NCBI GenBank assembly: GCA_018648805.1
Contig: JABGQM010000005.1
Coordinates: forward strand, 49,433 to 113,432
Length of the DNA: 64,000 bases
Source: Verrucomicrobiota bacterium
Lineage (GTDB): Bacteria > Verrucomicrobiota > Kiritimatiellia > UBA8416 > JABMPJ01
Reading direction: 5' to 3'
The position numbers and the translations under genes were made by a program. A model generated the notes under the pieces. The model searched no databases and was not told the DNA's origin. It worked only from the letters and a program-made list of their open reading frames with translations. This document shows positions 4,355 through 47,348 of this stretch, in pieces; the stretch's first letter is position 1, and every line of letters starts with the position of its first letter.

Positions 4355-4370
4355 GCAGGCAGTGATACGT

Positions 4371-12876: not shown

Positions 12877-15612
12877 TTGCGACGAACACTTCCATATCTT
12901 GTTCTGCTTCTCATCATAGGGATGGGCCTCTTTTTTCGCGGTGGCGGACTCTACCGCGGCCTCGATGAGCGCAAGTACGTCTACCACCCTGACTCCCCCA
13001 AGCAGATCCAGGCCGTCAGCAATTTCCTGAAAGGGACCTATGTCTGGCGCGGCGGCAGTTGGTTTATCGATGGCTATCCCTATGGGCTCAACCACATTGA
13101 TGCCGTATTTTTACGGCCGACGCTGGCCATCTGGAAGGGCCTAAGGCCCTCGCTGGAGAAATGGCTGGGACGTGAAGAGGGCATCACGCTCAACCTCTAC
13201 CACTGGGTCCGGTCGCTACGGCTCCTCTATGGACTGGTCTCCGTTCTCCTGGTCTGCCTGGCCTGTCGCCTTCTGCGCATGGGGTGGGGGGCCTCGCTCT
13301 TTGCCGCCGCCGTAGTGGCGATCTGTCCACTCACGGTCGCCGTCTCACATTTTGCGACGGGTGATATTGGGACCGACCTTTTCATCTCGTTCATGATGGT
13401 GATGCTGGCCGCTCACCTGCGTCAGCCGCGCCGCTTCATATGGATGGCAACCGCATCGCTCTGTACCGGCATGGCGTTCTCCTGCAAATACCAGGGCATC
13501 ATGGCCGCCTTCTGCATCGCCTTCATCATCCTGGTCGAATCCATCCGCAAACGCCAGTGGCTGGGATTCTTCCTGCGCGGCGGTGGCGCAGCGCTCTGCT
13601 GCGTGGCGGGTATCCTGATCCTGAAGCCGGAACTGATCATCAATACGGCACAGGCCTGGGATGACATGATCGTCAACTTCATTCGCATCCAGAGCTACAA
13701 CGTCCCTGCGGCATTCAAGGCGCTTCCCCTGCACGCGAAGTTGGCACAGAGCTGGTCCAACAGCCTGCCACGCCTCGCCCGCGCCATGTATGCCCCGCTC
13801 ATGATCGCTACGCTGGTGTCATCGGTCCTGTTTGTGTGGCGGGTGGTAGTGCATTGCCGCTCCGGGAAACCAGCCTGTTCGGCGCGCTGGGGGCGTGATG
13901 TAGGTGCGGCCGCGATCAGCCTGCTGGCGCCGGTGGTGCTGGTGCTGGCGGTGTCAGGCAAACCCATGCTGCATCCATTTCACTTTTCCTTCCTGGTGCC
14001 CGTTATGGCCGTGGGCGTAGCGGCGCTCCTGGATGCATCGCGCGGGAGCAGGGCCTGGACACGCTATGCCGCCGGCGTATTGGGTCTGCTGCTGGTGGCG
14101 ATGATGTGGCGCGACGCGGCGCACGAGCATTTCTTCTGGGTACGTGATGATAATCTGCATATCGCCCAGACCTACGCGCGTACCGTGGCGGAGTCGCCCT
14201 ACCGCGGCGAGAAACGCGGCATAAAGTTCCTGGACTTCGAGCCGCGTTCGGCTTCGGTATTCCGTAATCGCCATCCCTGGTCGATCGTACGAATGCGTGC
14301 GCTGAACTACTGGATCGACCATCGTACGTTGCCGCTGCCGACGGTGCCGTATCCGCGTGAGGTGGATTGGATGCTCTGTAACGGTCCGGTCTTTCTTCGC
14401 AACGATCGATGTTTCAATGTGCCAGCCGATGGCCGCGCTGAGCGGGCCTTGGTTTTTCCCGAACGATGCGATCGGATTGAGCTGGGCCTGCGCAGCGGCA
14501 CCCGCCCGACCGCCGTGACGATTCGTCGTCCCACGCGTCGGGTCTGCCACACGCTGCCACCTCACTCGCAAACCACGGTCGCGATGGATACGCGGGGATG
14601 GATCCGCAGCGCGACGCGTGACCGGAGCCAGCCGGTGTGGATCCTACCGCTGGAGGTCACGGCGGAGATGGGGGATGCCTGGGTCACGCTGCTTGCGACA
14701 GCGGAGGATCGCGCTCTATTCGAACTATACGGCGGGACCATGGGAGATCCGCCTGTCGCTCTGCTGGCGCAGCATGGCAAACGCAAGGTGACTATCGCGA
14801 CACAGGGCGCTCGGTTTGTCGACTGGACCCGTTTCACAGGCGGTCTGACCCATGTCCATGAAGCCGTCATGCCGGCGGGCGTCTACCGGTTGCGGTTGAC
14901 CGCAACGTCAGAGGTGGCCGGCAGCATTCGCATCGCTGTGAAGGGCGCCGACACGCAGCTGCTCTGGGAGGGGGTCGAGACGGTCCGCCCCATCCGCCCC
15001 GGCGAGAACGCCGTTGAACTCTCTTTCAGCAAGCCATTCGCCCCGTACGAACTGCGCGTGACGATTGAGCGTGATGACGCCACGATTCGGCCCACCCGCT
15101 GTTCGATCAAGCCGCTGGGAGGGCGCATCTTCAGTGAGTTGAGCGCGTGGTGCGAGGAGGGTGTGCGTCCGGCATGGTTGTCGCCCGCGGCCGCCGCACC
15201 TCGTCCATCCGGCGAAACGCTGAAGGCAGCCCAGACCGCGTTGGGCGACACCATAATGCTGCGCACAGTCACGCTGCCGGCGACGGTGCATCAGGGCGAT
15301 AAGATTGCCGCCTATCTCGACCTGGCCCTAGCGGCTCGTATCCTGCCCGACCTGGCGAACAGCCACCTTTTCATCCATCTTGTGAATGAGGCCGGAGAGC
15401 AGGTCCATGTGGGGGGCTGCCCCCTTGCAGGAGCCCTTGCCGCATCGACCCACGGGCGCCATGTCGAGTTCGACAATCCTGTGGCGGCGCCGGCGGGAGC
15501 GTATCGCTTGCGACTAGGTGTCTGGAACAGCCGCACGGCCGAAGCGTGGTCGGTCGGGGCGGAGGGCGGCGCCACCTATATCGAACTCGGTCCGTTCACG
15601 GTCACTCCGTAG
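12877..15612 (+). CDS. GT-C fold membrane glycosyltransferase-like protein (GT39/ArnT/PMT-like N-terminus) with a large C-terminal extracytoplasmic domain
   Basis: N-terminus MRRTLPYLVLLLIIGMGLFFRGGGLYRGLDERKYVYHPDSPKQ resembles ArnT/PMT family starts. Many predicted TM helices fill the first ~430 aa. A ~450-aa soluble C-terminal domain follows. Assignment is by resemblance only. Confidence 0.5.
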   Translation: MRRTLPYLVLLLIIGMGLFFRGGGLYRGLDERKYVYHPDSPKQIQAVSNFLKGTYVWRGGSWFIDGYPYGLNHIDAVFLRPTLAIWKGLRPSLEKWLGREEGITLNLYHWVRSLRLLYGLVSVLLVCLACRLLRMGWGASLFAAAVVAICPLTVAVSHFATGDIGTDLFISFMMVMLAAHLRQPRRFIWMATASLCTGMAFSCKYQGIMAAFCIAFIILVESIRKRQWLGFFLRGGGAALCCVAGILILKPELIINTAQAWDDMIVNFIRIQSYNVPAAFKALPLHAKLAQSWSNSLPRLARAMYAPLMIATLVSSVLFVWRVVVHCRSGKPACSARWGRDVGAAAISLLAPVVLVLAVSGKPMLHPFHFSFLVPVMAVGVAALLDASRGSRAWTRYAAGVLGLLLVAMMWRDAAHEHFFWVRDDNLHIAQTYARTVAESPYRGEKRGIKFLDFEPRSASVFRNRHPWSIVRMRALNYWIDHRTLPLPTVPYPREVDWMLCNGPVFLRNDRCFNVPADGRAERALVFPERCDRIELGLRSGTRPTAVTIRRPTRRVCHTLPPHSQTTVAMDTRGWIRSATRDRSQPVWILPLEVTAEMGDAWVTLLATAEDRALFELYGGTMGDPPVALLAQHGKRKVTIATQGARFVDWTRFTGGLTHVHEAVMPAGVYRLRLTATSEVAGSIRIAVKGADTQLLWEGVETVRPIRPGENAVELSFSKPFAPYELRVTIERDDATIRPTRCSIKPLGGRIFSELSAWCEEGVRPAWLSPAAAAPRPSGETLKAAQTALGDTIMLRTVTLPATVHQGDKIAAYLDLALAARILPDLANSHLFIHLVNEAGEQVHVGGCPLAGALAASTHGRHVEFDNPVAAPAGAYRLRLGVWNSRTAEAWSVGAEGGATYIELGPFTVTP

Positions 15613-19016: not shown

Positions 19017-20015
19017 CTACAGCAGCCCTTCCGTGCGGTACCATTCGGCCGTGCGGCGAATGCCCTCGGCCAGGCTCACGCCCGGTGTATAGCCGATCGT
19101 CTGACGCGCCTTATCAATCTTGAAAGCACGGCTCTTTGTGAAGAAGTCGACTCGGCGCCGGTAAATCGGCGGCGGAATCCGCAGCGGTACGCAGACCTTC
19201 TCCACCACCGTGCCGAGCAACTGGATCGGCCAGGCCGGGATGTGCAGCTTTGGCGGCGGTACGCCCAAGGCGTCGGCGATGATTCTGAACAGCTCGTTGA
19301 GCGGCACGTACTCCTCGCCGGCCACGATAAAGAGTTCGCCGTCGGCGGTATCCGATTCCATGCCGCGGATGAAGCCCTCCACCAGGTCGTCGATATAGAC
19401 GGTGTGAAATGTGGGTTTGCCGCTGCCGATCACAAAGAAGCGCCGCTTGGCGATCATGCTGAACAATTTGAGCAGCCGCAGGTCGCCGGGTCCGTAAATC
19501 GAAGCGGGCCGAATCACCGTGCCACGCAGGCGGCCCGAGCGGAACGCCTCGAGGGCCAACTTCTCGCCTTCCATCTTGGTGACCTGGTAGATGTCGCCCG
19601 GGTTGTAGGGCGTCTCTTCGTCGGCCGGCGGATTGGCAATATGGCCGCATACCCCGATCGTGCTGCAGTGCACCATCTTCTCAACCCCGGCTTCAACCGC
19701 GGCATCAATCAGCAGCGTGGTCGCATCGCGGTTGATGCGGGTGTACTCCGCGTCGGGCACATTGGCCCGCCGGAACAGCGCCGCAATGTGGAAGAGGTAG
19801 CCGCAACCTTTCACGATGCGGGTACAATCCTCTGCCAGGCCCACATCGGCTTCGACCACTTCGACCCCAGCCTCCATCAGCTCTGCGGTGTCGCTGTTGC
19901 CCCCGGGCCGCACCGTGCCGCGCACCGTGTAACCCTCGTGCGCCAGCCGCAAGGCCAGTGCTTTACCTGTGAACCCGGCCGCGCCGGTCACCAAAATCTT
20001 ACGGTCTTTATCCAT
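19017..20015 (-). CDS. NAD-dependent epimerase/dehydratase (SDR family, sugar-nucleotide modifying)
   Basis: Rossmann motif KILVTGAAGFTGKALALRL. Catalytic YQVTKMEGEK (YxxxK). Length 332 aa. Confidence 0.75.
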   Translation of the reverse strand: MDKDRKILVTGAAGFTGKALALRLAHEGYTVRGTVRPGGNSDTAELMEAGVEVVEADVGLAEDCTRIVKGCGYLFHIAALFRRANVPDAEYTRINRDATTLLIDAAVEAGVEKMVHCSTIGVCGHIANPPADEETPYNPGDIYQVTKMEGEKLALEAFRSGRLRGTVIRPASIYGPGDLRLLKLFSMIAKRRFFVIGSGKPTFHTVYIDDLVEGFIRGMESDTADGELFIVAGEEYVPLNELFRIIADALGVPPPKLHIPAWPIQLLGTVVEKVCVPLRIPPPIYRRRVDFFTKSRAFKIDKARQTIGYTPGVSLAEGIRRTAEWYRTEGLL

Positions 20016-20185
20016 CGTACGGTCCGAACTGCGATCCCTACAGCCTATAGCCTACAGCCTAAACGCCTGGCAGCATCCGGAGGATGCCGCCTCAAATCTA
20101 CCCTTGCGCCGCTGTTGAGCTGATGTCTATGCTCTGCTCCATCTAGGGCGCGCCCGAAAGTGTCGGTCGGATAATAGGGATAGAG

Positions 20186-22816
20186 GTGTTTCCGTTGCAA
20201 GACTATAGCAGAGACGGGGGGCGTCGCCGCAGTGTGATTCTCTATGTTATTGCCGCGATAGCCTTCTTGCTGCTGGCCCTGGTTTGGACCCGGCCGTTGC
20301 ATCGTTACCTATTCAAAGGCATTCCCTATGAGGTCGAGCCGCATGCGGGGATCGAGGTGGTGCATGTCTCCCCGCAGGACTGTTTGCAGCTCTACTACAA
20401 GTACTGGCTCTTCTCGGAGTTCGTGGCCGGACGCATCCCGGTCTTCAGCGACCCCTACGAGTTCGCGCTGCCGGGCGCACGTGGCTTCACCAGTCAGCAA
20501 TTCCCGGTCAGCCTGATTTTCGCTGCCCTGCGGCCGATCAGCCCCATTTTCGCCTACAACGCCATCATCCTGCTCTCCTTCCTGGGGTGCGGTCTCTTCA
20601 TGATGATGCTCGTGCGTTGCACGATGGATGACTGGTGGGCTGCGGCCCTGGCCGGGCTCATCTTCTGCATCATGCCCTTCCGTCTGCCCCAGCTCATGGC
20701 CGGACACCCCAACGGGGTGGTGGTGATGCTCCTGCCGCTGGTGCTCTACTTTGCCCATCGCGGGCTGGAGGGCAAACGCGCGGCGGCCATCGGTGCCGGG
20801 TTGACCGCCACCGCGATTGCCCTCATGGATATGCAGTTGGCCTACTTCAGCGCCATGCTGATCACGGCCTTCGTGCTGTGGCGCACATGCGGCTATATCG
20901 TCGTACACTGGCGTCCGGTGGGCCCGCGTATTGTGGCCAAGCTATTGCTGCCACGACTCCTGTTGATGGGCGTCTCGGCGCTGCCGGGCGTGATCTATCT
21001 GATCTTCGTCAAGCGGGTGGTGCTCAAGGCCTCCGCCATCCATGGCAGCGGCGTGGCGGGCAGCGGCCAGATCGGACCCGCCCTCAAAGATATTTGGGAT
21101 ATTACCGTCTGCGGCGAACGACGCATCTACATGGGTCCCTACGTGTTGGCTTTTGCCGTGGCCGGCTTGATCCTGCCCTACCTCCTGAAGCACAAGCGCG
21201 TCGTACGCTGGCGTGCCGACGCCATCTTCTGGCTCCTCATGGTGGTCGGTGGCATTGTACTCAGCCTCTCGCTCAATCCCCCCTTCAATCGCTGGGTTGA
21301 CGGCATCCCGATCGCCCGCCTCTCGCGCACCCCCGCCCGCGCCGCCGTGATCACGTTTACCGGCCTGGCGCTCCTGGCGGCACAAGCGTTGTCTGTGCTG
21401 CGCGGCTGGTTGCAGCGTTGGCGCAACGGGCGTGCCATCGGCGCCGCTGTGGCGGTGGCCTGCATGGCGCTTGTTGTAGCGGACTACTGGCTTGAGGGCC
21501 CACGCGGCATCAACGTGCTGGCGGTACCGTCGCCGGTCTACCAGAACATCACGGCGTCTACCGATGACCCACGCGTTCTGGCGGTGCCTATCTGGCCGGG
21601 CGACAGCTCGATGAGCTCCAGCCTCTTTCATCACATTGCCCGCAGCCGCGTCCACCTGATCAATGGCTACAGTCCCGTGGCTTCGGCGGATTACCGCGCC
21701 AAGGTGTTCGAGCCGTTTAGCCTGGCCAATGTGGGCCAGTTCGGGAGCAACGAATGGGCCTTGGCGCAAGCGATGGGCGTCACGCACGTAACCTTTCATC
21801 CGGAGAGCTTTCCGGCACCGGGTCACGTCAGTGTATTTCCCGCCGATCTCACCCTCGACCGTCTCAAACAGACCCCCGGCCTCACCTGGCTTGAGCATCA
21901 CGATCCGGTGGACGGATTTCGCCTGCAGGATGCACCGGAGTGGTCGACGGCTCCGCCGCGTGCCATTTCACCTGTCTCCTACAATGTCTCCGGTTATCAC
22001 TGCGGCATGCCCGGCGAGACCGCGCTCGAGAGTCCGCCCAGCATTGCGGGCCACATCCAGACCGGCTCGGGCGGAACCACCAACGCGGTTTTCCAGTGGC
22101 GTGGCCGCGTCTTACCGAGCGGGGCGTACACGGTCGGCTTGCGCATGCGCGTCATGCCGATGGGGGACAGCATGCCCACCCCCGTGCGCTGGAACGTGGA
22201 GGCGGTAGACAGCCTGACCAGCAACGTGCTCACAACAGCAGCCTTCCCGGACGGCGTCGCCGAGGCCGGCGAGTTCGAATGGTTCTCGTTGCCGCTATCT
22301 CTCGACACGGCGCGACGCGTCGGGCTGCGCCTGACCTCACCCGACCGCGTGCGCTTCGAACTCGATCTCTGGACTATTGGGTTTAGCGCTGCCCGTAATC
22401 AGATGGCGTGGGAAGCCGAAGACTTTTACCACGCCGGCCGCACGCTGGCCGTGGAGGGGGCCGGCGGCCGCGGTGTGGTCAATCTGGGCGCGAACGATCC
22501 CACCGAAGGCGTGATTCGTGGGCCCTTTAAATACATTCCCGCCGGCGACTACGCTCTGACCGTCCGTTATCGAGGACGGAGCGATGACGCCGGACCGGTC
22601 GCGCGTATTTTGCTGGCCAGCCATCTCTCGCCGGCCCATCGCCACAAGGTCGATCTTGGCGCGCTGGATCTGTCGGTCGGCGGCGACGCCCAGCAGTGGC
22701 GCGAGGCGACACTGCCCTTTACGGTACCGTCGAGTGGGGTCATATTTGAATGCTGCATTGACCGCCTGCCTGGCGGTCTAATCGAGGTGGATCATTTCCG
22801 GCTGGCCTCCAAGTGA
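20186..22816 (+). CDS. Large polytopic membrane protein (putative GT-C-like glycosyltransferase) with a C-terminal carbohydrate-binding-like beta-sandwich region
   Basis: GTG start. The N-terminal ~480 aa are very hydrophobic with many TM helices (VILYVIAAIAFLLLALVW...). C-terminal soluble region ...AWEAEDFYHAGRTLAVEGAGGRGVVNLG...YALTVRYRG. No confident family assignment. Confidence 0.45.
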   Translation: MFPLQDYSRDGGRRRSVILYVIAAIAFLLLALVWTRPLHRYLFKGIPYEVEPHAGIEVVHVSPQDCLQLYYKYWLFSEFVAGRIPVFSDPYEFALPGARGFTSQQFPVSLIFAALRPISPIFAYNAIILLSFLGCGLFMMMLVRCTMDDWWAAALAGLIFCIMPFRLPQLMAGHPNGVVVMLLPLVLYFAHRGLEGKRAAAIGAGLTATAIALMDMQLAYFSAMLITAFVLWRTCGYIVVHWRPVGPRIVAKLLLPRLLLMGVSALPGVIYLIFVKRVVLKASAIHGSGVAGSGQIGPALKDIWDITVCGERRIYMGPYVLAFAVAGLILPYLLKHKRVVRWRADAIFWLLMVVGGIVLSLSLNPPFNRWVDGIPIARLSRTPARAAVITFTGLALLAAQALSVLRGWLQRWRNGRAIGAAVAVACMALVVADYWLEGPRGINVLAVPSPVYQNITASTDDPRVLAVPIWPGDSSMSSSLFHHIARSRVHLINGYSPVASADYRAKVFEPFSLANVGQFGSNEWALAQAMGVTHVTFHPESFPAPGHVSVFPADLTLDRLKQTPGLTWLEHHDPVDGFRLQDAPEWSTAPPRAISPVSYNVSGYHCGMPGETALESPPSIAGHIQTGSGGTTNAVFQWRGRVLPSGAYTVGLRMRVMPMGDSMPTPVRWNVEAVDSLTSNVLTTAAFPDGVAEAGEFEWFSLPLSLDTARRVGLRLTSPDRVRFELDLWTIGFSAARNQMAWEAEDFYHAGRTLAVEGAGGRGVVNLGANDPTEGVIRGPFKYIPAGDYALTVRYRGRSDDAGPVARILLASHLSPAHRHKVDLGALDLSVGGDAQQWREATLPFTVPSSGVIFECCIDRLPGGLIEVDHFRLASK

Positions 22817-24972
22817 GTCGCCACCACCCAAAGCGGAATCACCCAGCGCGCAGGACGCCGGTTGCGCAGACCGTGCTGCTGGTGGCGCTGGGTCTACTGC
22901 TCGTCTTCGGCACGTACCTGAGTGGTGCCTGGCTGAATGTGGGATGGATGCTCCGTGCGCTCTGGGTGCTTCCACTCTGGCTGGTTGGCGGCTTTGTTGC
23001 CTGGCGACAAGCGTCACAGGCCCCGCGGCGCTGGCCACTCATCGTTCTGCTTGGCCTGCTGGGCCTCTACCTCTTCTCACGCGCGGCCGCGGCGCCGGAC
23101 TTCTTCTTCCTGAATTGGGCGCCGGTGGTACCGTGGAAGCCCTGGCGGGGCTGGATCGAGCGCGCCCTCGCGCTGGGCGCCATCTTCCTGCTCGCGCGCG
23201 CTCTGGGCCGGCGTGCCCTGACCGCTGTGATGGCGCTCGCACTGGTGGGCTGCATTGGGGCGGCCGTTGTTGCGCTTATGCACGCCACGGGCGGCGATCC
23301 GCTCTACCGCATCGATCACCCCTCCTTCTTCTACCGCCTCTGGTCGTACGGCCAGTCGATGCCGCGTTTTATCTATTACGACCCGCATTGGAACGGCGGC
23401 ACAGTGATGCCCTACCTCGTGGCCTCAGGCGTGATGGGACCCGGACTCTTCCTCTGGCCGATCTGGAAATGGTGCGCCACGGCCACGGTCTATACCCCTG
23501 CCTTTGCCCTGCTCTTCCTCGTTGTGGTGCCGCTCTTGGCGGCGGCGGCCTGTCGTGCCCTCACGCGCGACCGCCTGGCATGGATCGCGGCGGCGTTCCT
23601 CGGACTCGGCACCTCGCATTTCTACTACGTTCACCTGGTCCACTACGGCACCTTTGGATCGATCTTTGCCGCCGCTTTCCTGATGCCCCTGACGGCCTGC
23701 CTCTACCGTATCGTCATGCTGGGGCGTACCGACCGCTGGACCTGGATCGGTGTTGTGCTCTGCGGGGCCGCGGCCCTGAGCTGGCCGCCCGCGGCCCTCA
23801 TGGCCCTGCCGCTGGGTGTGGCCCTGCTCTTCAACTGGCGCCGCCTGCGCTGGCCGGTCATGGCCGGCCTGCTGGCCTGCGCACTCGCCCTGGTGCTTAT
23901 TTTTGCGCTGCCGGCACTCAGCCTTATGACTCACTCCCGGGTGGGGAAGATTGCGGCCACCTATGCATCGCCCTTCACGCTCGACTTCGTGCGCGCCGGT
24001 TTTGTGCAGCTCGGCGAGCTGCTGCGTCAGAGCCATCCGGTCATCCTCTTCGCCGGCCTGCTCGGCCCGTTGGCACTGCCCTGTCGCCGCCTGCGCCGCT
24101 GGTTTGTGCCGCTGCTCGTTAGCAGCCTGCTGATTGCCGCCTGGGGCAAGGGCTGGAAGCGCGACCTGCAAATCGACCGGGTCTGGCTGAACGCCCTCTT
24201 CATCGGCATTCTCCCGGCCGCCATCGTGCTGGCCCGCCTGGCGCGACAGCGCGCCTGTCTCGCCCGCGTCACGGCGGCCCTACTGTGTGGCCTGCTTGTT
24301 ATGGGCGGCTACACCGCCATCAAATACATGGGCAACCAGGGCCGCGCCGGCTTCACCACCATGACGCCCGAGTTGCGCGAGATCGTGGAGTGGATCCGCG
24401 GGAATGTACCCGAAGAGGGGCGCGTTATGTTTGCCGGCGCGGCTGTGCACGGCTACAGCGGTGGCAAGGTCGCCGCCCTGCCGGTCTATACCGGGCGTGA
24501 GATGATGGCCTGCGACTACTACGGGTTCTCACCCAAGCTGGTCGAATACAACTACCCGACCCGCGAATTTCGCAAACACGGTCCGCAGAAGCTGTTCGAC
24601 TTCATGAATCTTTACAATATCACCCACATCATCACCTACCACGACGACTGGAAGGCCGCCTTCCGGCGCCTCGACACGCAGTACGCCGAGGCGGCCAGCT
24701 TCGGCAAGAAGACCCTCTTCCGCGTCTTGCGCGATTCGAGCATGATCGCCGATGGGGCAGGGGAGGTCGACGCGGGCATCAATCGCATCGTCGTGACCCC
24801 GGCCGACCCGAATACGCCCGTCGTCGTGAAGTACAACTGGGTAGACGGCATCAGTTGCACGCCGGCCCAGGCCTCGATTGAGCCATGGGATACGGGCACC
24901 AGCGTCAAACTGATCCAGGTGAATCCGGGCGGAGCCGAGACCGTGACGATCGGCTACAAGAGGTGGTACTGA
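22813..24972 (+). CDS. Polytopic membrane protein (putative GT-C-like glycosyltransferase or polymerase)
   Basis: GTG start overlaps the upstream stop (translational coupling). More than 12 predicted TM segments across ~520 aa, then a soluble C-terminal region. Rich in R/W-flanked helices. Confidence 0.45.
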   Translation: MSRHHPKRNHPARRTPVAQTVLLVALGLLLVFGTYLSGAWLNVGWMLRALWVLPLWLVGGFVAWRQASQAPRRWPLIVLLGLLGLYLFSRAAAAPDFFFLNWAPVVPWKPWRGWIERALALGAIFLLARALGRRALTAVMALALVGCIGAAVVALMHATGGDPLYRIDHPSFFYRLWSYGQSMPRFIYYDPHWNGGTVMPYLVASGVMGPGLFLWPIWKWCATATVYTPAFALLFLVVVPLLAAAACRALTRDRLAWIAAAFLGLGTSHFYYVHLVHYGTFGSIFAAAFLMPLTACLYRIVMLGRTDRWTWIGVVLCGAAALSWPPAALMALPLGVALLFNWRRLRWPVMAGLLACALALVLIFALPALSLMTHSRVGKIAATYASPFTLDFVRAGFVQLGELLRQSHPVILFAGLLGPLALPCRRLRRWFVPLLVSSLLIAAWGKGWKRDLQIDRVWLNALFIGILPAAIVLARLARQRACLARVTAALLCGLLVMGGYTAIKYMGNQGRAGFTTMTPELREIVEWIRGNVPEEGRVMFAGAAVHGYSGGKVAALPVYTGREMMACDYYGFSPKLVEYNYPTREFRKHGPQKLFDFMNLYNITHIITYHDDWKAAFRRLDTQYAEAASFGKKTLFRVLRDSSMIADGAGEVDAGINRIVVTPADPNTPVVVKYNWVDGISCTPAQASIEPWDTGTSVKLIQVNPGGAETVTIGYKRWY

Positions 24973-27296
24973 TGGCCGACGGGGCGGCTCAGAGTCAATA
25001 CGCGTGGCGCTGGCGAGTGGGGCTCCTTTTGGTCCTGCTGGCCGGATTCGGCCTGCGCATGGCGCTGGCCGTCACGGCCTTTGCCTCGACCCGTGACACC
25101 TCGACGGTGGGCATCATGGCCGGCCAAATCCTCAATGGCAGCCGGCCGCTCTTCTACGCCGGACAGGAATACATGGGCGCCCTCGAAGCCTATCTGGTCG
25201 CCATCGTGTTCCGTTGCTGTGGCGTCTCGCCCGTGACATTGGCGCTCATCCCGTCGCTCATGGCCCTGCTATGGGCCGGCGCCCTGTTCGCACTCTTCCG
25301 CCGGCTCTTCGCCTCACCGGCGGCCGGCCTCGCCGCGGCCGCCTGCGCCTCTTTCGGCGGACACTACACGATGTGGTACACCATGGGTGCCTACGGCGGC
25401 TATCCCGAGATGTATCTGTTCGGGACCCTCGCCCTCCTCCTGGCCATGATGGTCAGTCGCAGCGATGCACCCGAGGCCCGGTGGCGCCACTGGCTGCTGC
25501 TGGGTGGCGTGCTCGCCCTGGGGGTCTGGACCAATATGCAGGTGATTCCGTTCTTCCTGACCGCGGGCCTCTGGATAGCGGTCGACTGGTTGCGCCACCG
25601 CCGCCGCTCGTGGCGTCGCCCGGCGGCCATGCTGACCGCCCTCTCCATCGGACTGCTCGGTCTGCTGCCCTCCCGCTTCGTACCGCATAGCGAGAACAAC
25701 GAACTGGTGGGCATGGTGCTGCCGCGCCTCTCCCTCCTGGCCCGCCATGGATCCACTTTTGCGCGCCACAACCTCCCACGCGCACTGTGGTGGCCCGATA
25801 CCCATCTGGTCTGGATCTGGTGCCTCGGTCTGCTGCTCCTGCTGCCAGTGACGTGCTACCTGGCGGGACTCTTCACACGTCGCGGCGAAGCCCGACGTCG
25901 CGTGCCGCTGATCTTCGTGGCGCTCTTCCTGCTGCTCTATCTCTCGCATCCGCTCGCCGCCCTCTCGGCGCCGCGTTACCTTATCTCATTCGTTACCCTC
26001 TCACTGGCCGCCGGGTTCGCCGCCATGCTGGTGGCCCGTCCGCGTCTGCTACGCCTCGCCGGACTCCTCTTGCTGTTGCTGTGGTGTGGCTACAACGTCA
26101 GTGGCACGCTCAACAAGTGCCTGACCTCGCGTGCCGCCAAAGCACAGGAACTCATGATTCGGCATCGCCTGATCGACAAAGCCGAACAGGCCGGTCTGCA
26201 AAACGTGAAGATTATCGGGGGTATCGCCGACTGCCTGCGCGGTCTCAAGCTCTCCTTCTCAGCGGGCGGCCGTGTCGCCTTTCTCGGCTTTCGGGACGAC
26301 CGCATCCTGGCCCATCACACCGCCTGGGCGGCTGATGACCGGGCCGGCTACGCTTTCTCGCCGCGCCTGCGCTTCTATTTCGAAGGCGCCATGACCGCCC
26401 TCGCGGCCGAGAGCTACACCTTCGTGGATGATCCCAACCTGATGATGCTGGCCGATATAGTGCCGTCCCATGCGCGCCGCCGTGCGGTGGACGTGGCTTC
26501 TGTTATCACCGAGGGCGTATCCGGTCGTGGCATCGATCTCTTTGATCGTGTGCGCAGCACCGCCCTCGCCCCCACCGGCGCCGTGCAGCAGATCACCTTC
26601 GCACTGGAGGGCGTCACCACCCTCAGCGGGATGCGCTTCATGCCGGCCGGGGAGGATCTGCCGCGCGGGCCCTACGATCTCGCGGTCTCAACCGATGGCG
26701 CGCACTTCACGCCTATCCTGACCAATATTACGCGTGTGGGGGAGTCGTATGTGAACGGCAACCGGATCTATCTTAAGGATGTCGAGCCGGCTCAGGACCA
26801 CTGCTGGTCACCGGTTGAGGCCTCGCATGTTCGCTTCACCTGCCGCAGCAGCGGAAAAGCCGCCGGCTGGGCCATCGCCGAGGCCTACCTCTTCGAGCAC
26901 GTCGGTGAGCTGGGTCCGGTGGGGGAGGCGGAAGTGGAGGCGATCAGCCGCCACTGCACCTCACGTGCTATCGATTTCGCCTGGTGCGACCGCTGGCTCA
27001 GTCGCAAGCTGGTGGGGGTTGCCACGCCGCCCGCCCCCAACAGTCGCTACGCGCAGACACTCATCCCGCGTCGGGTCGACTTCCGTTCCGGCCTGGCCGT
27101 GATCGTCGACCGCGCCATTGCGGCCGACACCGAGCGCACGCTCACCCGTGCTCTCCCGACCGGTCGGCGCGTCATGCGCGAAGACTTCGATCACTACAGC
27201 GTGTTCCACACCGAAGGGACGTCCACGGCCACACCGGCGGGTGATCCGGACCTGGTCTGGAACGGCCACACCGTCCTGCTGACCCCGTCGCCCTAA
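24972..27296 (+). CDS. GT39/ArnT-like membrane glycosyltransferase with a C-terminal discoidin (F5/8 type C)-like domain
   Basis: ATG at 24972 overlaps the upstream TGA. N-terminus MADGAAQSQYAWRWRVGLLLVLLAGFGLRMALAV is ArnT/PMT-like. The C-terminal segment PRGPYDLAVSTDGAHFTPILTNITRVGESYVNGNRIYLKDVEPAQDHCWSPVEASHVRFTCRS...WAIAEAYLFEH resembles a discoidin domain. Confidence 0.5.
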   Translation: MADGAAQSQYAWRWRVGLLLVLLAGFGLRMALAVTAFASTRDTSTVGIMAGQILNGSRPLFYAGQEYMGALEAYLVAIVFRCCGVSPVTLALIPSLMALLWAGALFALFRRLFASPAAGLAAAACASFGGHYTMWYTMGAYGGYPEMYLFGTLALLLAMMVSRSDAPEARWRHWLLLGGVLALGVWTNMQVIPFFLTAGLWIAVDWLRHRRRSWRRPAAMLTALSIGLLGLLPSRFVPHSENNELVGMVLPRLSLLARHGSTFARHNLPRALWWPDTHLVWIWCLGLLLLLPVTCYLAGLFTRRGEARRRVPLIFVALFLLLYLSHPLAALSAPRYLISFVTLSLAAGFAAMLVARPRLLRLAGLLLLLLWCGYNVSGTLNKCLTSRAAKAQELMIRHRLIDKAEQAGLQNVKIIGGIADCLRGLKLSFSAGGRVAFLGFRDDRILAHHTAWAADDRAGYAFSPRLRFYFEGAMTALAAESYTFVDDPNLMMLADIVPSHARRRAVDVASVITEGVSGRGIDLFDRVRSTALAPTGAVQQITFALEGVTTLSGMRFMPAGEDLPRGPYDLAVSTDGAHFTPILTNITRVGESYVNGNRIYLKDVEPAQDHCWSPVEASHVRFTCRSSGKAAGWAIAEAYLFEHVGELGPVGEAEVEAISRHCTSRAIDFAWCDRWLSRKLVGVATPPAPNSRYAQTLIPRRVDFRSGLAVIVDRAIAADTERTLTRALPTGRRVMREDFDHYSVFHTEGTSTATPAGDPDLVWNGHTVLLTPSP

Positions 27297-27997
27297 AACT
27301 GGTAATCAAACCTCTCTATATCATCCCTATACAGCTTAGCGACTTGGTCAATTGTTGACGGACTGTTGTAGTAGTCATGGTAGTGGTTTCGATTCGTCGT
27401 GTTCCGCTTTTCCAATTCCAATGGCTCTCTCCCCATTGCCCTCAAGAGCCTGTTCATATCTCTATCGAAGTGTTCCACTTTTCCTGTAAAATCCAATTTG
27501 TCAGGGGTGAACAGGACTTGCGGCTGCCAATGATGATTGCCCTTGCTGACTGCAAACTCAACGAAGTGGTCAAATTCTGTTAGATCTTCGTTTGTCATCG
27601 TCCTCAACTGTGCAATGCGACGTGGCTGCGTCGTGAACATTTTCCAATTGGACACCATTCGATCCCAAGGATTACGAACAAAAGTAAACTTAAGATAACT
27701 GGCCAACTCCTTCTTGGGATTTCGCAATGAAGCCGATGATTTATTCTGAAACAATGCCCTTCGAATGGTAGTAGATGCTGCCTTTGGCACATCAAAATAC
27801 ATCAATTTACTCAACTCATCTATATAAACAAAGCTATAGCGATGAGCCGACACCGCTGGGCACTTGCACTTGGGGCATTCACAAGGAATATTCTCTCGTG
27901 CATACCGGTAATAGTACGGTGCACTCTTCTCCAATAGAAAATTGTTGTGCCATTTCTTCCCTAACTTCCAGCACGTTGATCGAATAGTCTCTTTCAT
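27293..27997 (-). CDS. Sulfotransferase family protein (Sulfotransfer_2-like), encoded in a low-GC island
   Basis: 5'-PSB-like motif YFDVPKAASTTIRRAL. 3'-PB-like FVRNPWDRMVSNW. Local GC is ~43-45% against >60% in the flanks. Confidence 0.55.
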   Translation of the reverse strand: MKETIRSTCWKLGKKWHNNFLLEKSAPYYYRYARENIPCECPKCKCPAVSAHRYSFVYIDELSKLMYFDVPKAASTTIRRALFQNKSSASLRNPKKELASYLKFTFVRNPWDRMVSNWKMFTTQPRRIAQLRTMTNEDLTEFDHFVEFAVSKGNHHWQPQVLFTPDKLDFTGKVEHFDRDMNRLLRAMGREPLELEKRNTTNRNHYHDYYNSPSTIDQVAKLYRDDIERFDYQF

Positions 27998-28091
27998 TTA
28001 CTTCTTACACTGATAGGAATTCACTTTCCTGCTGGTCATTCACACGACCCGCAAGTGGCCGCTAAACGCGCCTGGTGCATGCAGACTATGT

Positions 28092-29480
28092 CTATCGCTT
28101 AAGCTTCTGGTATTTCCGCTTCTTGAGCACCAACCGCAGCTTGATCAGTGGAATGGCCGCGCTGGAGGTCAGGAACTTGATCACGAGGAAGCGCAGTCGC
28201 GGGAAGCGGCTGAGTCCAATCAAGCCCGAGATCACACGCTCCTTAATGACATCCTTCTTCGTGTGATCAGGCGTATCACGGTCGTAGGTCGGTACGGCCC
28301 TTCCTGCCTTCTTGAGGCGCGCCACGCGTAGTGGGGCGTTGACCCCTTTGCGCCGGGTCTGGATGCGATGCGTGCGGTAACTTGGATCGTCCGAGACGCA
28401 GATCGTGGTGATCGCACCGGCCTCAACCGCATCGTCCAGCGCCTTGGCCCCGCGCTCGGTTCGTACCAGGATGCGCGAGTGGCCTTTGAACTTGTAGTTG
28501 CCCTCGCGGTCGCGTGTCCAGGCATCGCTGACCGATAGATCTGAAAACTCGCCGGAGCCATCCAGACAGGTCTGGCAGCGCGGCGGCATGTAGAGCGAGA
28601 TCAGGTAGTTGTAGGCACCATCCTTGTAGTTGGAGTAGTGCATGTCGCGGATGGTGTCGTTCTTGAGCAGGGCACGCATCTTGCCCGGCCATTCGCCACC
28701 GCGAAACTCGAAGCCGTTGATGTCATCCCGCCCCAGGTGCTTGGTCTTCAGCAGGTCGGTGACCACCTCCGGTTCGAGTGAGCCACCGCAGAAGAGACCG
28801 ATGGCCAGATGAATCTTGCCCGCCAGTTCAGGGCAGGCTTCCTGCATCAGGCGGTAGCCATGCATCTGGCAGGGCAGGGCGGCCAGAGCAAAGCGGCCCT
28901 GCTCGCGTCGCAGCAGGGCGAAGACCTCGTTGACCGGAATGATCATGTAGCGTGAGCCCTGGCTCTGCAGCAGCTCGGTGCGCGTGCGGGCAATAAAGGC
29001 TTCGCCGCGCCATGGCTGGTCCGGCTTCATACGCGTCACGATGCAGCCATCCACGACCTTGTGCTCCAGCAGATCGGCCAGCAGTCCCGTGATAATGCCG
29101 CCGCCCGCGCCGCGTGCCTGAATCTCCGGGTCGGTCGACTTGCCGACAAATGTCTCACGCACATGTCCGTCGAACGAATCGGTGTCGTGGTCATGTCCAA
29201 ACGTGATCTGGGTGAGGTGTTTGTATTCCACCGTGCCGCCCGGACAGGTCTTGGTGCACAGCCCGCAGTCGATGCACGCGTCCTCATCAATCACCGGGTA
29301 GAGATCGTCACCCATCGTGATGGCGCCCGTCGGGCAGACCCCCGCACAGGTCCCGCAGCGGGTGCAGAGGGTCTTGTCCGTGAACGCGATACTGAGATGG
29401 TCCGGGGAAATTGCCATGCGCGCAAGCAAACCCGATGCACCATACGCAGTCAAGGGGAAAGGCTCCTGTGCGTTTGCCAT
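28092..29480 (-). CDS. Coenzyme F420 hydrogenase/dehydrogenase beta-subunit (FrhB)-like protein with two N-terminal 4Fe-4S ferredoxin motifs
   Basis: CTRCGTCAGVCP and CIDCGLCTKTCP clusters precede an FrhB-like body. Start chosen at MANAQEP (ATG 29480..29478). The track's longer N-terminus is read through the upstream inverted repeat. Confidence 0.6.
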   Translation of the reverse strand: MANAQEPFPLTAYGASGLLARMAISPDHLSIAFTDKTLCTRCGTCAGVCPTGAITMGDDLYPVIDEDACIDCGLCTKTCPGGTVEYKHLTQITFGHDHDTDSFDGHVRETFVGKSTDPEIQARGAGGGIITGLLADLLEHKVVDGCIVTRMKPDQPWRGEAFIARTRTELLQSQGSRYMIIPVNEVFALLRREQGRFALAALPCQMHGYRLMQEACPELAGKIHLAIGLFCGGSLEPEVVTDLLKTKHLGRDDINGFEFRGGEWPGKMRALLKNDTIRDMHYSNYKDGAYNYLISLYMPPRCQTCLDGSGEFSDLSVSDAWTRDREGNYKFKGHSRILVRTERGAKALDDAVEAGAITTICVSDDPSYRTHRIQTRRKGVNAPLRVARLKKAGRAVPTYDRDTPDHTKKDVIKERVISGLIGLSRFPRLRFLVIKFLTSSAAIPLIKLRLVLKKRKYQKLKR

Positions 29481-29504
29481 GCTCTTTCCGACCAGGGGGA
29501 GATT

Positions 29505-29610
29505 CAACGCCCAACAACCAACGCCCAACAACCAACTTCCAAGGGAAGACGAACGTTCTGTGCCTCCCTACTTGGATGTTGGGCGTTGGATGTTGGATGT
29601 TGGAGGTTCA
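29505..29610. repeat. Long imperfect inverted repeat (predicted stem-loop) with nested small palindromes, in the divergent intergenic region
   Basis: Left arm caacgcccaacaaccaacgcccaacaaccaac contains a 15-nt direct repeat. Right arm ggatgttgggcgttggatgttggatgttgg pairs with it at ~21/23 positions. The loop contains cttcc-aag-ggaag and the perfect palindrome gaacgttc. Confidence 0.5.
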
Positions 29611-29716
29611 GTTTTCCTTACTGTTCTTCCCGCACCACGTGTGGTCTATTCCTTTTGCACACGGCGAAAATTTCTCGCAAAGCCCTCTGCTTTGCGACAG
29701 GGTAACTATCTTCAGC

Positions 29717-32254
29717 ATGAAATCTACGCCTGACAGCCTGCACTCTGACGCGACGCGCCCTGCCTCTGTGGGGTATCGGCTCAGCATGGTGCCGGGACTC
29801 CTCGGTAGCGCTTGGCTGATCGCGTGGACCTGGGCCTGGAACCAGCGTTACGAGCTGCGCACCGGATACGACAAGACCAGCGACCTGCTGGTCGCTGTGC
29901 CCACGCCGCGACTCTGGATCATCGTCATGGCGGCCCTCGGGCTGGCCGGTCTGTTGTGGCTCGTGGCGCGGCACTGGCCCATCGATACGCGTGCGCGCAC
30001 GCTGCGCCGCTGTCGCGTGGTCTTGACCGTCTTTGCGCTGCTCTCGCTTCCGTTTGGTCTGCTTTCCCGCACCCTCGCCCCCGACGGGCTCGGGCTCGGC
30101 ATGCTCTGGCATATCGGACTGCCCGTGGTGGCCCTGGCGGCACTGGTGGCGCTGGTCGCCCTGCTCCTGCCGCTGCTGGAAGGGCGGAGGGGGACGGTCC
30201 CATCCGGGCGCCACCGCTATCGTCTATGGATCTTCTTCTTTATTGCCGTGCACCTGCCCTCGCTCTGGTTTGCACGCCCCTGGGAGAGTGACCGTTTCTA
30301 TCGCCACCGCCACCTCGGTGGCGATGAGCCGCGCTACCTTCTCATGACGCATAGCCTGGCCCAGGACCGTGATTTCAATCTCCTGAACAACTACGTGGAG
30401 AATCACCGCGACCGCTACATCTGCTGGACCAATCCGTACAACGACCCCGGTGATGCCGCTTACGCTAGCCGTGCCGTGAAGTGGGGCGCCGATGCACCGC
30501 ATTCCACCCCGGAGTACTGGCAGGGGCGGCGCTACGGAATCGAGCGATTGGGGATGCCGCTGCTGATCGCCCCCGCCTACAAGATCGGACTCAAGTGTGG
30601 TCAGCGGCAGCGCTATGGCGTGGTCCTCATGTTGAACCTGGTGCTGGTCTTCAGCATGGCCAACATCTACCTCTTTGCCGCGCAACTTGGCGTCGCGCAC
30701 GGGGCCGCCCTGCTCGCCGCGCTCGGCGCCGGTCTGAGTGCCCCGCTGTGTCTCTATGGCGTGTCGGCCTACACCGAGCCGGTCAGTGCCGCCCTGATCA
30801 TCTTCTGTCTGCGCATGATCCACGCCTTCCGCGCCCGACGCCTCGAGGGGGGGATGCCGGCGCTGCTCCCGCTCCTCAGTTTTGCCGTCGGCCTGGCCTA
30901 TCTGCCCTGGGTGCATGAGAAGATGATTCCCTTGGCCCTGTTCCTCGGGCTCTGTTTCATCCTGGCCGCCCGTCCGCGCTGGCGCACCCTACTGCCCATC
31001 GCGCTCGCACTCGCGCTCAGTTTCGCGCTGCAGGGCCGCTATTACTGGCTGCTCTACGGCCAGGTCACCCCGGCGCACGTCCACGGCCACTCGTTCAGTG
31101 CCGCCGCCCTGTTCAGAGAGGGGCTCTGGGGACTGCTGCTCGACCAGAAGCGGGGCGTCATGCCGGCGGCCCCCTGGGTACTTGCCGGAGGGGTCGGTCT
31201 GGGGATCTGGTTCCGCCGTCAGTGGCGCTTTGCTGTGGCACCGGCCGTCATGGTCGTGGCCTTTCTGCTCATGACCGGGGCCTTTGGCGGCTGGTATGGC
31301 GGCGGATCGGCCCAGCCACGCTACCTGCTCAATATCTTGCCGATCCTGGCGGTTGGTGTGGCCGTGGCGTGGGCGCACGGCCGCCGCCCGTTGCGCGGGC
31401 TGATCCTGGTGACGGTTCTACTCGGCATGGCCCAGGGCATCAACGCCGTGCTGACCCCTGACTTCCTTGTCTGGCACCGCGCGCCCTTCCTGCGCGATCT
31501 CTATCCTTGTGTGTTCAAGCTCGATCCGGTGGAGTGGATGACGATCACCGCCTGGATGGTCGCCCTGCTCTGGCTGGGTGTGGGACTGCCGCAGTGGCCC
31601 CGGCGCAAGAGCCTGGCGGTGATCCCCGCCTGCTGCTGCCTCCTGATCATGGGCGGCTCTGTGTGGCGCTTCCACAAGAGTACGCGCCCCACGATTGCCG
31701 TCCAGAACCCCGCCCTTCTCTCGAGCTTCTACCGTGACGACCTCCGCTTTGCGACCTTCAACAAGCGCATCATGATGCGCCGCTGGGAACGGGCCTATTC
31801 GGCGCAGCAGACCCCCGACACGGTTATGGGGGCCCGCACCCAGTATGAGAACAAGGTGTCAGGCCACTGCAGCGTGGTTCAGGACCCCACGGCCGAGGGA
31901 GGTGCTGCAGCGCGCTGGGAGGGTGAGGCCCACAGTGACTGGCTGCCGCTTACCGTGGGTCCCATCCTCTCGCTCTATGAAGGCGACTACCGTGCCACGT
32001 TCCATCTGCAGGTGCGTGGCCGTGCGGTCGAGGAGACGCAGCCCCTCACCGTGCGGCTGGTGGTCAGTGCGGGTGGCGTCATTTTCAATAGCACCGTTCT
32101 TGAACCGAAGTCATTGACCGGCGACTGGGCCGACTATCAGCTCCCCTTTACGCTCGCCACCCCCGTGCGTGGCGTGGACATGTCGGTCCAGGTGGTGGGC
32201 GGCGGCACGTTGCAGATGGACCGTGTTCAGCTGGATTATCTTGTGCTGCCCTGA
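29717..32254 (+). CDS. Large polytopic membrane protein (putative GT-C-like) with a C-terminal beta-sandwich domain
   Basis: ATG at 29717. The track's 29411 start runs through the inverted repeat. Many TM helices across ~560 aa. C-terminal domain ...YEGDYRATFHLQVRGRAVEETQPLTVRLVVSAGG...MDRVQLDYLVLP. Confidence 0.45.
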   Translation: MKSTPDSLHSDATRPASVGYRLSMVPGLLGSAWLIAWTWAWNQRYELRTGYDKTSDLLVAVPTPRLWIIVMAALGLAGLLWLVARHWPIDTRARTLRRCRVVLTVFALLSLPFGLLSRTLAPDGLGLGMLWHIGLPVVALAALVALVALLLPLLEGRRGTVPSGRHRYRLWIFFFIAVHLPSLWFARPWESDRFYRHRHLGGDEPRYLLMTHSLAQDRDFNLLNNYVENHRDRYICWTNPYNDPGDAAYASRAVKWGADAPHSTPEYWQGRRYGIERLGMPLLIAPAYKIGLKCGQRQRYGVVLMLNLVLVFSMANIYLFAAQLGVAHGAALLAALGAGLSAPLCLYGVSAYTEPVSAALIIFCLRMIHAFRARRLEGGMPALLPLLSFAVGLAYLPWVHEKMIPLALFLGLCFILAARPRWRTLLPIALALALSFALQGRYYWLLYGQVTPAHVHGHSFSAAALFREGLWGLLLDQKRGVMPAAPWVLAGGVGLGIWFRRQWRFAVAPAVMVVAFLLMTGAFGGWYGGGSAQPRYLLNILPILAVGVAVAWAHGRRPLRGLILVTVLLGMAQGINAVLTPDFLVWHRAPFLRDLYPCVFKLDPVEWMTITAWMVALLWLGVGLPQWPRRKSLAVIPACCCLLIMGGSVWRFHKSTRPTIAVQNPALLSSFYRDDLRFATFNKRIMMRRWERAYSAQQTPDTVMGARTQYENKVSGHCSVVQDPTAEGGAAARWEGEAHSDWLPLTVGPILSLYEGDYRATFHLQVRGRAVEETQPLTVRLVVSAGGVIFNSTVLEPKSLTGDWADYQLPFTLATPVRGVDMSVQVVGGGTLQMDRVQLDYLVLP

Positions 32255-37507: not shown

Positions 37508-38302
37508 ATGATGGCGGTCAGGAATAGAACAATGCGCAACTGTATGATACTTGGAGCGGGACGCAGCGGTACCAGCTTGGCGGCGGGATGTCTCGCGTCG
37601 GCCGGTTATCACATGGGTGACGACCTGATTGAACCGTGTGAGACGAATCCGCAAGGGTTCTTTGAATGCCGGCGTATCAATGCTTTGAATGAGGATATCC
37701 TGCGTGCCGTGGATGCACGCGGCGCGCCCCGCTACCTGGGGCTATTCGGCCGTCAGCGGTTGCGGCACGACCAGTACTGGTTGGCCTGTCTCTCGCCGCG
37801 GACCACGTTTCGGCCTGACCCGGCCATCCGGGAGCGTATTCGAGACTGCTTGTCACGACGGCCTTACTGCTTCAAGGATCCCCGTTTCTGCTATACACTA
37901 CCCGTCTGGCAGCCCGAGCTAGGGCGTGCCGCCTTCCTGTGTGTCTTTCGCCATCCGGGCGCCACAGTGCGGAGTACGCTGCGGGAGTGCGAGCGGATGG
38001 ATTACCTGGGTGACGTGCACATGACCGAACGATGGGCCTGGCAGCTCTGGACCTGTATGTACCGTGCGGTCCTGGCCATGCCGGACCGCGACCGCACATG
38101 GCTGTTTGTGCACTACAACCAGATACTGGAGGGGGATGCCTTCTCGCGCGTGGCCGAGCACCTCGATGTGACGATTCAATCGGACTTCGTTAATCCCGCG
38201 TTGAGTCGCACCCCTACGATGCCCATCACCTCTTCCTCCGTGGCGCGGCTCTACGATGCACTGTGTGAACGGGCGGGCTATGACAGGAGTAGAGACAGAT
38301 GA
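37508..38302 (+). CDS. Sulfotransferase family protein (Sulfotransfer_3/Stf0-like), a third sequence family
   Basis: ILGAGRSGTSLAAGCL is a P-loop-like 5'-PSB motif. Size 264 aa. No similarity to the other sulfotransferase families at the motif level. Confidence 0.55.
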   Translation: MMAVRNRTMRNCMILGAGRSGTSLAAGCLASAGYHMGDDLIEPCETNPQGFFECRRINALNEDILRAVDARGAPRYLGLFGRQRLRHDQYWLACLSPRTTFRPDPAIRERIRDCLSRRPYCFKDPRFCYTLPVWQPELGRAAFLCVFRHPGATVRSTLRECERMDYLGDVHMTERWAWQLWTCMYRAVLAMPDRDRTWLFVHYNQILEGDAFSRVAEHLDVTIQSDFVNPALSRTPTMPITSSSVARLYDALCERAGYDRSRDR

Positions 38303-45294: not shown

Positions 45295-45414
45295 ATGAGA
45301 CGCATGCTGCAACTTCTACCCCTGATGCTCTACATGGCTGTTGCCGGAACGATCGCGTTGCAGGGAAATCATGCGTTCGTGGCCCGACAACGTCTGTATG
45401 GAGAGCCTAATTAG
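45295..45414 (+). pseudogene. 5' fragment (39 codons) of an AlgJ/AlgX/DltD-like partner gene, cut by an IS insertion
   Basis: Starts directly after the MBOAT stop, the same arrangement as copy 2 at 50775. MRRMLQLLPLMLYMAVAGTIALQGNHAFVARQRLYGEP is homologous to the copy-2 N-terminus MRRFLQLGPIMVYAAVVASVAIQQYTRRVELHPLDGEP. The frame then runs into the IS and stops. Confidence 0.7.
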
Positions 45415-47299: not shown

Positions 47300-47348
47300 T
47301 AATTATGCCAAGATCCCTCGCCCCACCGGCAGTGTCACACGGTGGTGG

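Follow-up and report, generated by a model that had tools for sequence, protein, structure and literature searches.

A compositionally foreign sulfotransferase gene, probably acquired on its own, in a surface-polysaccharide locus of a marine Verrucomicrobiota bacterium

The polysaccharide locus described here carries a sulfotransferase gene that was, with good probability, gained by horizontal transfer as a single gene added to an existing pathway. The gene lies in a 64-kb stretch of Verrucomicrobiota DNA (64,000 nucleotides, hereafter the window). Its composition is foreign, its motifs and fold are intact, the same site is empty in the closest orthologous locus (L088), and its homologs are scattered patchily across phyla. 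From these observations we infer the direction and the timing of the event. Horizontal acquisition had been proposed in a first-pass annotation of the window; codon usage, homolog distribution and the empty site in L088 all favour it. The features on which the argument turns are the following.

24885 to 27296, plus strand: GT-C-like membrane glycosyltransferase (PMT_2 and F5/8 type C by Pfam), resident, left flank of the proposed insertion
27293 to 27296: left junction, where GC switches exactly at the overlapping convergent stop codons
27293 to 27997, minus strand: sulfotransferase gene (234 aa, Pfam Sulfotransfer_2), the one intact gene in the islet
27998 to 28040, minus strand: AT-rich 5' leader of the sulfotransferase gene, about 43 nt, GC 0.37
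28041 to 28091, no strand: intergenic remnant with native-like GC of 0.61, between the islet and the FrhB-like stop codon
28092 to 29417, minus strand: FrhB/FdhB-like Fe-S protein (Pfam and NCBIfam), resident, right flank of the proposed insertion

Extent of the GC islet

The islet is real. In sliding windows, GC is 0.42-0.46 across 27350-28099, compared with 0.63-0.69 to the left and 0.59-0.66 to the right, where it is back at about 0.6 by 28100-28300. The 705-bp sulfotransferase gene is the lowest-GC stretch of that length in the 64-kb window, with a GC of 0.437 versus a window mean of 0.604 (sd 0.036; z = -4.6; host GC is taken from the window alone, 64 kb of an 80.6-kb contig). The earlier description of a low-GC island in a locus of more than 60% GC therefore stands: the stretch from 27294 to about 28040 has 44% GC in a 62-66% neighbourhood. 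In a two-state change-point fit, GC is 0.446 inside the islet and 0.636 outside it (log-likelihood ratio 51). The same fit pins the left edge to 27287-27304 and places the right edge loosely, at 28020-28190.

On the left, the TAA of the GT-C gene (27294-27296, plus strand) overlaps the TAG of the sulfotransferase gene (27293-27295, minus strand), so there is no left intergenic flank. Both intergenic flanks had been annotated as low in GC; this holds on the right only, and there for 27998-28040 but not for the 0.61-GC remnant at 28041-28091. The AT-rich leader contains a Shine-Dalgarno-like AAGAAG element 4 nt upstream of the sulfotransferase ATG and, judging by its composition, probably arrived together with the gene. 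Intergenic DNA aligns weakly with that of L088, too weakly to set the right breakpoint.

An extension of the islet into the 3' end of the FrhB-like gene, also proposed earlier, was not borne out. The final 60 nt of that gene have a GC of 0.50, inside the sampling noise for 60 nt, and the Lys-rich C-terminal tail that they encode (…IPLIKLRLVLKKRKYQKLK) is kept in the L088 ortholog. The mild GC dip is therefore native coding sequence. This conservation, together with the 61%-GC spacer in between, speaks against an islet that reaches into the FrhB-like gene.

The polysaccharide locus is a compositional mosaic beyond this one islet. The GT-C block (20000-32000) has a GC of 0.64-0.67, several points over the window average of 0.604, and a block at 44-52 kb has a GC of 0.54-0.58.

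Authenticity of the junctions and the empty site

A lower-GC fragment from another organism, misjoined into a high-GC contig during assembly or binning, would produce an islet of this kind. A metagenome-assembled genome (MAG) as the source, an abrupt switch in composition and a base-exact left junction are all what such a chimera would predict. The window, however, recurs in separate assemblies. It is 100% identical to L002 (GCA_018673455.1, contig JABHCQ010000008.1, Verrucomicrobia bacterium); its identity to L001 (GCA_018692835.1) is 99.995%, and to L094, a JGI metagenome contig, 99.98%. The same islet junctions are present, with 0-1 mismatches, in all three, that is, in two separately deposited MAGs and the JGI contig, which makes a chimeric assembly very unlikely. 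Moreover, both flanks are syntenic with L088, and an intact open reading frame (ORF) ends in a precise overlap of stop codons. We therefore give a chimera almost no weight. The three copies represent one population, at least 99.98% identical throughout, and are thus silent on timing.

The GT-C gene has a small set of orthologs (36-58% identity) in syntenic loci. The closest orthologous locus is L088, with a GT-C ortholog that is 58% identical and an FrhB-like ortholog that is 80% identical. In this one relative the same three GT-C genes are followed by the convergent FrhB-like gene across a 30-bp spacer, with no sulfotransferase gene. The enzyme had been described as a decoration function added to an existing pathway, and the lack of the gene at exactly this junction in L088 agrees with that description. 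P0158, a 74% relative of the FrhB-like protein, is not syntenic and provides no second empty site. A Sulfotransfer_2 gene is present elsewhere in the locus of L257; it has motif-level similarity only, and native GC.

What lies 3' of the third GT-C gene varies among these loci. This slot holds the FrhB-like gene only in L088, and the FrhB-like and sulfotransferase genes in the window. In more distant loci it holds an FtsJ-type methyltransferase (L254), a Hexapep acyltransferase (L092, L093 and L257), a GT2 glycosyltransferase (L090) or unrelated housekeeping genes, that is, the end of the locus (L089). From these gene orders, the slot appears to mark a module boundary for the exchange of tailoring genes.

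Such variability also lends itself to another account, in which homologous recombination replaced the whole downstream module, FrhB-like gene included, as in O-antigen and capsule locus switching, and only the sulfotransferase gene still looks foreign. Besides the variable slot, the mosaic composition of the locus, with its ISNCY element, and the loose statistical right boundary (28020-28190) fit an exchange of this size. The FrhB-like gene itself does not. It is host-like in composition (GC 0.61, GC3 0.78), it adjoins the GT-C gene in L088 too, its relatives form a smooth identity series, and a 61%-GC spacer stands between it and the AT-rich leader. We judge a larger exchanged segment improbable, and prefer the gain of the sulfotransferase gene alone.

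The sulfotransferase

The 234-aa protein matches Sulfotransfer_2 (PF03567) over profile positions 5-252 of 252, scoring 75.3 bits (E = 1.1e-20) where the cutoff is 22. It contains the motifs PKAASTT (5'-PSB) and RNPWDRMVS (3'-PB), which we take, from established knowledge of the superfamily, to be the elements that bind the 5'-phosphosulfate and the 3'-phosphate of PAPS. Residues P70, K71, R107, P109, R112 and S115 do not vary among 37 homologs. The predicted structure model has, with confidence, the sulfotransferase fold (P-loop-kinase-like alpha/beta), and shows no signal peptide and no transmembrane segment. A sequence-profile search of the PDB gave no match, so that the link to solved sulfotransferases is through fold comparison only, and among NCBIfam models no family matched at E <= 0.01. 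The subfamily is thus uncurated; it has neither a solved structure nor a curated family model.

Outside the Pfam domain, the N-terminus carries a C-x4-C-x-C-P motif that is invariant across the homologs. The cysteines are C39, C44 and C46, with C41 in addition in this copy, and the cluster could, from its sequence, bind a metal. This motif is lost from the NCBI gene call, whose 173-aa product begins with the TTG of codon 62 and so lacks the N-terminal 61 codons (27815-27997). Because the homologs align over the whole protein and the N-terminal motif is invariant, the real gene is the full-length ORF of 234 aa, and the first-pass coordinates (27293-27997) are correct. The atypical composition may have misled the gene caller.

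Relatives of the sulfotransferase

The best matches outside the host population, among the matches listed, are 70, 68, 67, 66 and 66% identical. In the contig scan for homologs, most of the matches listed were relatives with about 30% identity, and only two of those listed were close. The loci that we compared, with identity to the window protein, are these.

L004: 70%; a locus with several sulfotransferases; context GC 0.35, gene GC 0.35
L005, L006 and L007: 67%; a Flavobacteriales-type genome, by its S12 cluster; context GC 0.39, gene GC 0.33
L003: 66%; Oceaniferula marina N1E253; context GC 0.52, gene GC 0.47
L008: 66%; an Akkermansiaceae MAG; context GC 0.51, gene GC 0.46
L095: 62%; context GC 0.44, gene GC 0.39
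L019: 52%; a cyanobacterium (Phormidesmis); context GC 0.43, gene GC 0.36

The nearest homologs (62-70%) thus sit in genomes of 35-52% GC, in two phyla and in mutually unrelated gene contexts. In a bootstrapped neighbour-joining tree, the one kind of tree made and one with sparse taxon labels, the window protein is sister to P0002 and P0003 (83% bootstrap); the contig of P0002 has 35% GC. This group is nested in a clade of 11 with 100% support, which unites Verrucomicrobiota with the Flavobacteriales-type genome. Within the clade, identity to the window protein is 66% for Oceaniferula marina, 66% for the Akkermansiaceae MAG and 67% for the Flavobacteriales-type protein. Equal identity within and across phyla, together with the unrelated contexts, implies that the sulfotransferase gene moves on its own.

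The neighbouring gene behaves differently. Relatives of the FrhB-like protein form a smooth series of identities (81, 80, 74, 73, 69% and onwards), and the named matches are in Verrucomicrobia and Kiritimatiellae. The first-pass annotation had proposed comparing the taxonomic affinity of the sulfotransferase with that of its neighbours; the contrast between this 81-69% series and the nearest non-host sulfotransferases, at 62-70% in 35-52% GC genomes, supports its reading.

In L005 (10001-10711; also in L006 and L007) the homolog is a lone gene between a Por_Secre_tail gene and the housekeeping genes Bax1-I, SurE and LpxB, and is itself 6 GC points under its flanks. This gap suggests that members of the subfamily have been inserted independently, as single genes, elsewhere.

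Source of the GC deficit

Low GC in a gene can come from the amino acids that it encodes or from the codons that it uses for them. Here both contribute. GC1, GC2 and GC3 of the sulfotransferase gene are 0.43, 0.37 and 0.51 (GC3 0.511), whereas the 34 other ORFs of the window have GC of 0.54-0.67 and GC3 of 0.60-0.83, and the genes directly flanking it have GC3 of 0.78-0.83. Recoded with the synonymous codon frequencies of the window, the gene would have a GC of 0.526, compared with an actual 0.438; the same recoding comparison gives 0.603 +/- 0.024 for the other window genes. The synonymous component, observed minus host-codon-expected GC, is -0.088 (z = -4.55), and the amino-acid component has z = -3.3. 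Roughly half of the deficit is amino-acid composition and roughly half is synonymous codon choice. The reservation attached to the first-pass annotation, that AT-rich amino acids only might account for the low GC, is ruled out by the recoding and by GC3, and the composition and codon checks that it suggested came out on the side of transfer.

The difference in GC between gene and flanks is -0.167 for this copy, and on average -0.037 (sd 0.036) over 83 other loci of the family. It is the most extreme among the 84 members, 3.6 sd past the family mean. Family copies in Nocardioides reach 0.74 GC, and the family is therefore without an intrinsic AT constraint. Family regressions (n = 88) predict that a copy equilibrated in a host of 0.60-0.65 GC would have 0.57-0.62 GC; relative to that prediction this copy stands at z = -4 to -5.5. 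More distant members of the subfamily in hosts of about 70% GC have GC3 of 0.89-0.92, and so the subfamily adapts to high-GC hosts given time.

These data bear on a further alternative: that the sulfotransferase gene is ancestral to the locus and was deleted in the lineage of L088, its low GC reflecting family amino-acid composition or selection (for example, low expression). There are points in its favour. About half of the deficit does come from amino acids, since the host-codon expectation for the gene is 0.526 when other genes have 0.603; family members are on average 3.7 GC points under their flanks; the one empty site is in a distant relative, L088; and L257, a related locus type, contains a distant Sulfotransfer_2 paralog. 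However, an ancestral gene would not be expected to show a GC3 of 0.51 beside genes at about 0.78-0.83, a synonymous deficit at z = -4.55 or an overall deficit 3.6 sd past the family mean. Subfamily members whose hosts have about 70% GC show complete adaptation (GC3 0.89-0.92), so that a long-resident copy should have drifted. The L257 paralog is similar at the level of motifs only and has native GC, and the close homologs are in unrelated contexts in two phyla. We therefore consider ancestry followed by loss unlikely, and take horizontal gain as the better account of the deficit.

The polysaccharide locus

The surrounding locus spans about 42 kb (12.9-55 kb) and contains the following.

Four GT-C-like membrane proteins, and GT2 and GT4 glycosyltransferases
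Two pyruvyl transferases, a methyltransferase and an epimerase/dehydratase
A Wzm/Wzt-like ABC exporter and two MBOAT/AlgX O-acetylation pairs
An adenylation-PCP-thioesterase protein

Of the three large membrane proteins encoded at 20186-27296, the third is the product of the GT-C gene (24885-27296) that flanks the sulfotransferase gene. The four GT-C-like proteins (20186-27296 and 12877-15612) are polytopic and 719-911 aa long, with weak matches only, to PMT_2, PTPS_related or DUF6541; in one of them an F5/8 type C (discoidin) domain lies at the C-terminus. Together they make up a small, lineage-restricted family of orthologs without a curated model.

The sulfotransferase gene lies 94 nt downstream of the FrhB-like gene (GC 0.61, GC3 0.78, both host-like) on the same strand. 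A scan for promoters and terminators between the two predicted none, although promoters of Verrucomicrobia may not fit the sigma-70 consensus. Read-through transcription is therefore likely, and this arrangement suggests that the two genes are probably co-transcribed.

The locus probably encodes a second sulfotransferase. A 264-aa ORF at 37508-38302 (plus strand) has native GC (0.606), an N-terminal P-loop-like motif (GAGRSGTS) and a weak Sulfotransfer_3 match, which at 22 bits falls short of the cutoff (27); neither NCBIfam nor the PDB gave a match to its sequence. From these features it is a probable resident sulfotransferase of the same polysaccharide locus, and the host may therefore already supply PAPS to the pathway.

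Just upstream of the locus, 4362-12773 (plus strand) encodes what is probably a giant surface adhesin, 2803 aa long, whose repeats are of the FG-GAP, MBG and fibronectin type III kinds. Another FG-GAP protein is encoded at 60774-62543.

Donor, timing and mechanism

The family regressions also give an estimate of the home-genome GC: 0.48 +/- 0.03 from gene GC, 0.50 +/- 0.03 from GC3 and 0.47 +/- 0.05 from GC1+2. The donor genome thus probably had about 47-50% GC. The first-pass annotation had proposed a low-GC donor, and this is upheld insofar as the donor would be lower in GC than the host; it would be so only moderately, and is not necessarily or classically low-GC. The closest homolog outside the host population, among the matches listed, is 70% identical, and some members of its clade belong to the host's own phylum.

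The sulfotransferase gene lies on the family GC12-GC3 equilibrium line (residual z = +0.6), so that drift toward host composition is undetectable. Judged by the empty site in L088, the transfer would postdate the split from the L088 lineage, a distant one given protein identities of 58-80%. The description of the acquisition as recent is accordingly fair on the timescale of compositional drift, and on that timescale only.

We looked for a vehicle at the borders of the islet. There are no tRNA genes in the 64-kb window, no significant border repeats (the lone candidate, an 8-nt microhomology, TCCTGCTG, at 27274-27281 and 28027-28034, could be chance) and no insertion sequence at the islet borders, the nearest transposase being 17.6 kb away. 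An origin as a mobile element or genomic island has no support from these searches, which yielded no tRNA, no border repeats and an ISNCY element that is too far away. Viral contigs contain only relatives with at most 38% identity to the sulfotransferase, and plasmids only relatives with 24-27%; neither a phage nor a plasmid vector finds support in them. An integron cassette is rejected too: because the stop codon overlaps that of the neighbour, there is no non-coding DNA beyond the ORF in which an attC site could lie, and there is no border inverted repeat. The most economical inference is an illegitimate or microhomology-mediated insertion between convergent genes. Insertion at such a site disrupts no transcription unit.

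The ISNCY-family transposase (NCBIfam NF033593, 266 bits; Pfam DDE_Tnp_1) belongs to an element at 45405-47308 (ORF 45602-47239, minus strand) with 26-nt imperfect inverted repeats at its ends and the second-lowest GC in the window (0.49). With an MBOAT gene (43846-45294) on one side and an AlgX-like gene (47349-48392) on the other, it apparently splits one of the two tandem MBOAT/AlgX O-acetylation pairs.

We propose the following course of events. A single gene, in a segment of about 750 bp, would have come from a donor of lower GC (about 47-50%; known clade members are at 35-52%) and entered the short spacer between two convergent resident genes, in an ABC-transporter-dependent surface-polysaccharide locus of a marine Verrucomicrobia bacterium. 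There it would most likely be read through from the promoter of the FrhB-like gene. The product, a Sulfotransfer_2 enzyme, is predicted to be cytoplasmic and to sulfate carbohydrates in a PAPS-dependent way. With no signal peptide or transmembrane segment, and with PAPS in the cytoplasm, it would most likely place a sulfate ester on a sugar of the lipid-linked glycan, at the cytoplasmic face of the membrane before export, and so would alter the charge of the polymer at the cell surface. The acceptor and the physiological effect proposed here are extrapolated from gene content.

Discussion

Imported tailoring and transferase genes of low GC are a textbook feature of the O-antigen (rfb) and capsule loci of Enterobacteria, where they are seen as diversifiers of glycans. 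Those loci and this one are both mosaic surface-polysaccharide loci with lower-GC tailoring genes, and with insertion at a module boundary. The present case differs in that the foreign DNA is a single gene rather than a block and the host is a high-GC marine member of the Verrucomicrobia. It also differs in the function imported, since few of the bacterial polysaccharide loci characterised include sulfation. Tailoring genes of foreign composition being textbook in such loci already, the conceptual gain is small. What the locus offers is a base-resolved example of a probable single-gene acquisition in an uncultured marine member of the Verrucomicrobia, with the empty and the occupied site both at hand.

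Two bacterial systems come closest in function. Synechocystis PCC 6803 makes the sulfated exopolysaccharide synechan from the xss cluster, which includes the sulfotransferases XssA and XssE (PMC8205485). Both clusters have sulfotransferase genes inside a set of genes for an extracellular polysaccharide. The present locus is of the ABC-transporter type with GT-C-like proteins, and its sulfated product is deduced from the genes. The window enzyme has a cyanobacterial homolog (Phormidesmis, 52%). From the host's own phylum comes Pontiella sulfatireligans (Kiritimatiellae, Verrucomicrobiota), for which a cluster for a putative sulfated glycosaminoglycan-like exopolymer has been described and sulfated exopolymers were chemically detected (PMC7356697). 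Its sulfotransferase genes are in a polysaccharide cluster rich in GT2 and GT4; the enzymes carry PF13469 (Sulfotransfer_3), not PF03567, and the report makes no argument from horizontal transfer or composition. Further afield, eukaryotic Golgi carbohydrate sulfotransferases, such as heparan sulfate 2-O-sulfotransferase (PDB 3f5f), share the Sulfotransfer_2 family with the window enzyme.

A wider reading is possible, and we put it forward tentatively, as a conjecture that may well prove wrong. The enzyme would represent a so far uncharacterised bacterial clade, whose members are small, soluble glycan sulfotransferases that share the invariant C-x4-C-x-C-P motif. This clade would travel as a single-gene module between polysaccharide loci, and even housekeeping regions, of marine Bacteroidota, Verrucomicrobiota, Cyanobacteria and Proteobacteria. 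In the present locus it would sulfate a polymer that is built by the GT-C and ABC-transporter machinery and already served by the resident Sulfotransfer_3-like enzyme.

The locus adds to the still small body of evidence for sulfated surface glycans in bacteria other than cyanobacteria. Sulfated bacterial polymers are recalcitrant and are degraded via sulfatases, which ties them to marine carbon cycling; they also bear on metal binding, on interactions with phages and grazers, and on biotechnology. If the single-gene-module reading is true, sulfation of cell-surface glycans would be a horizontally tradable trait in the ocean.
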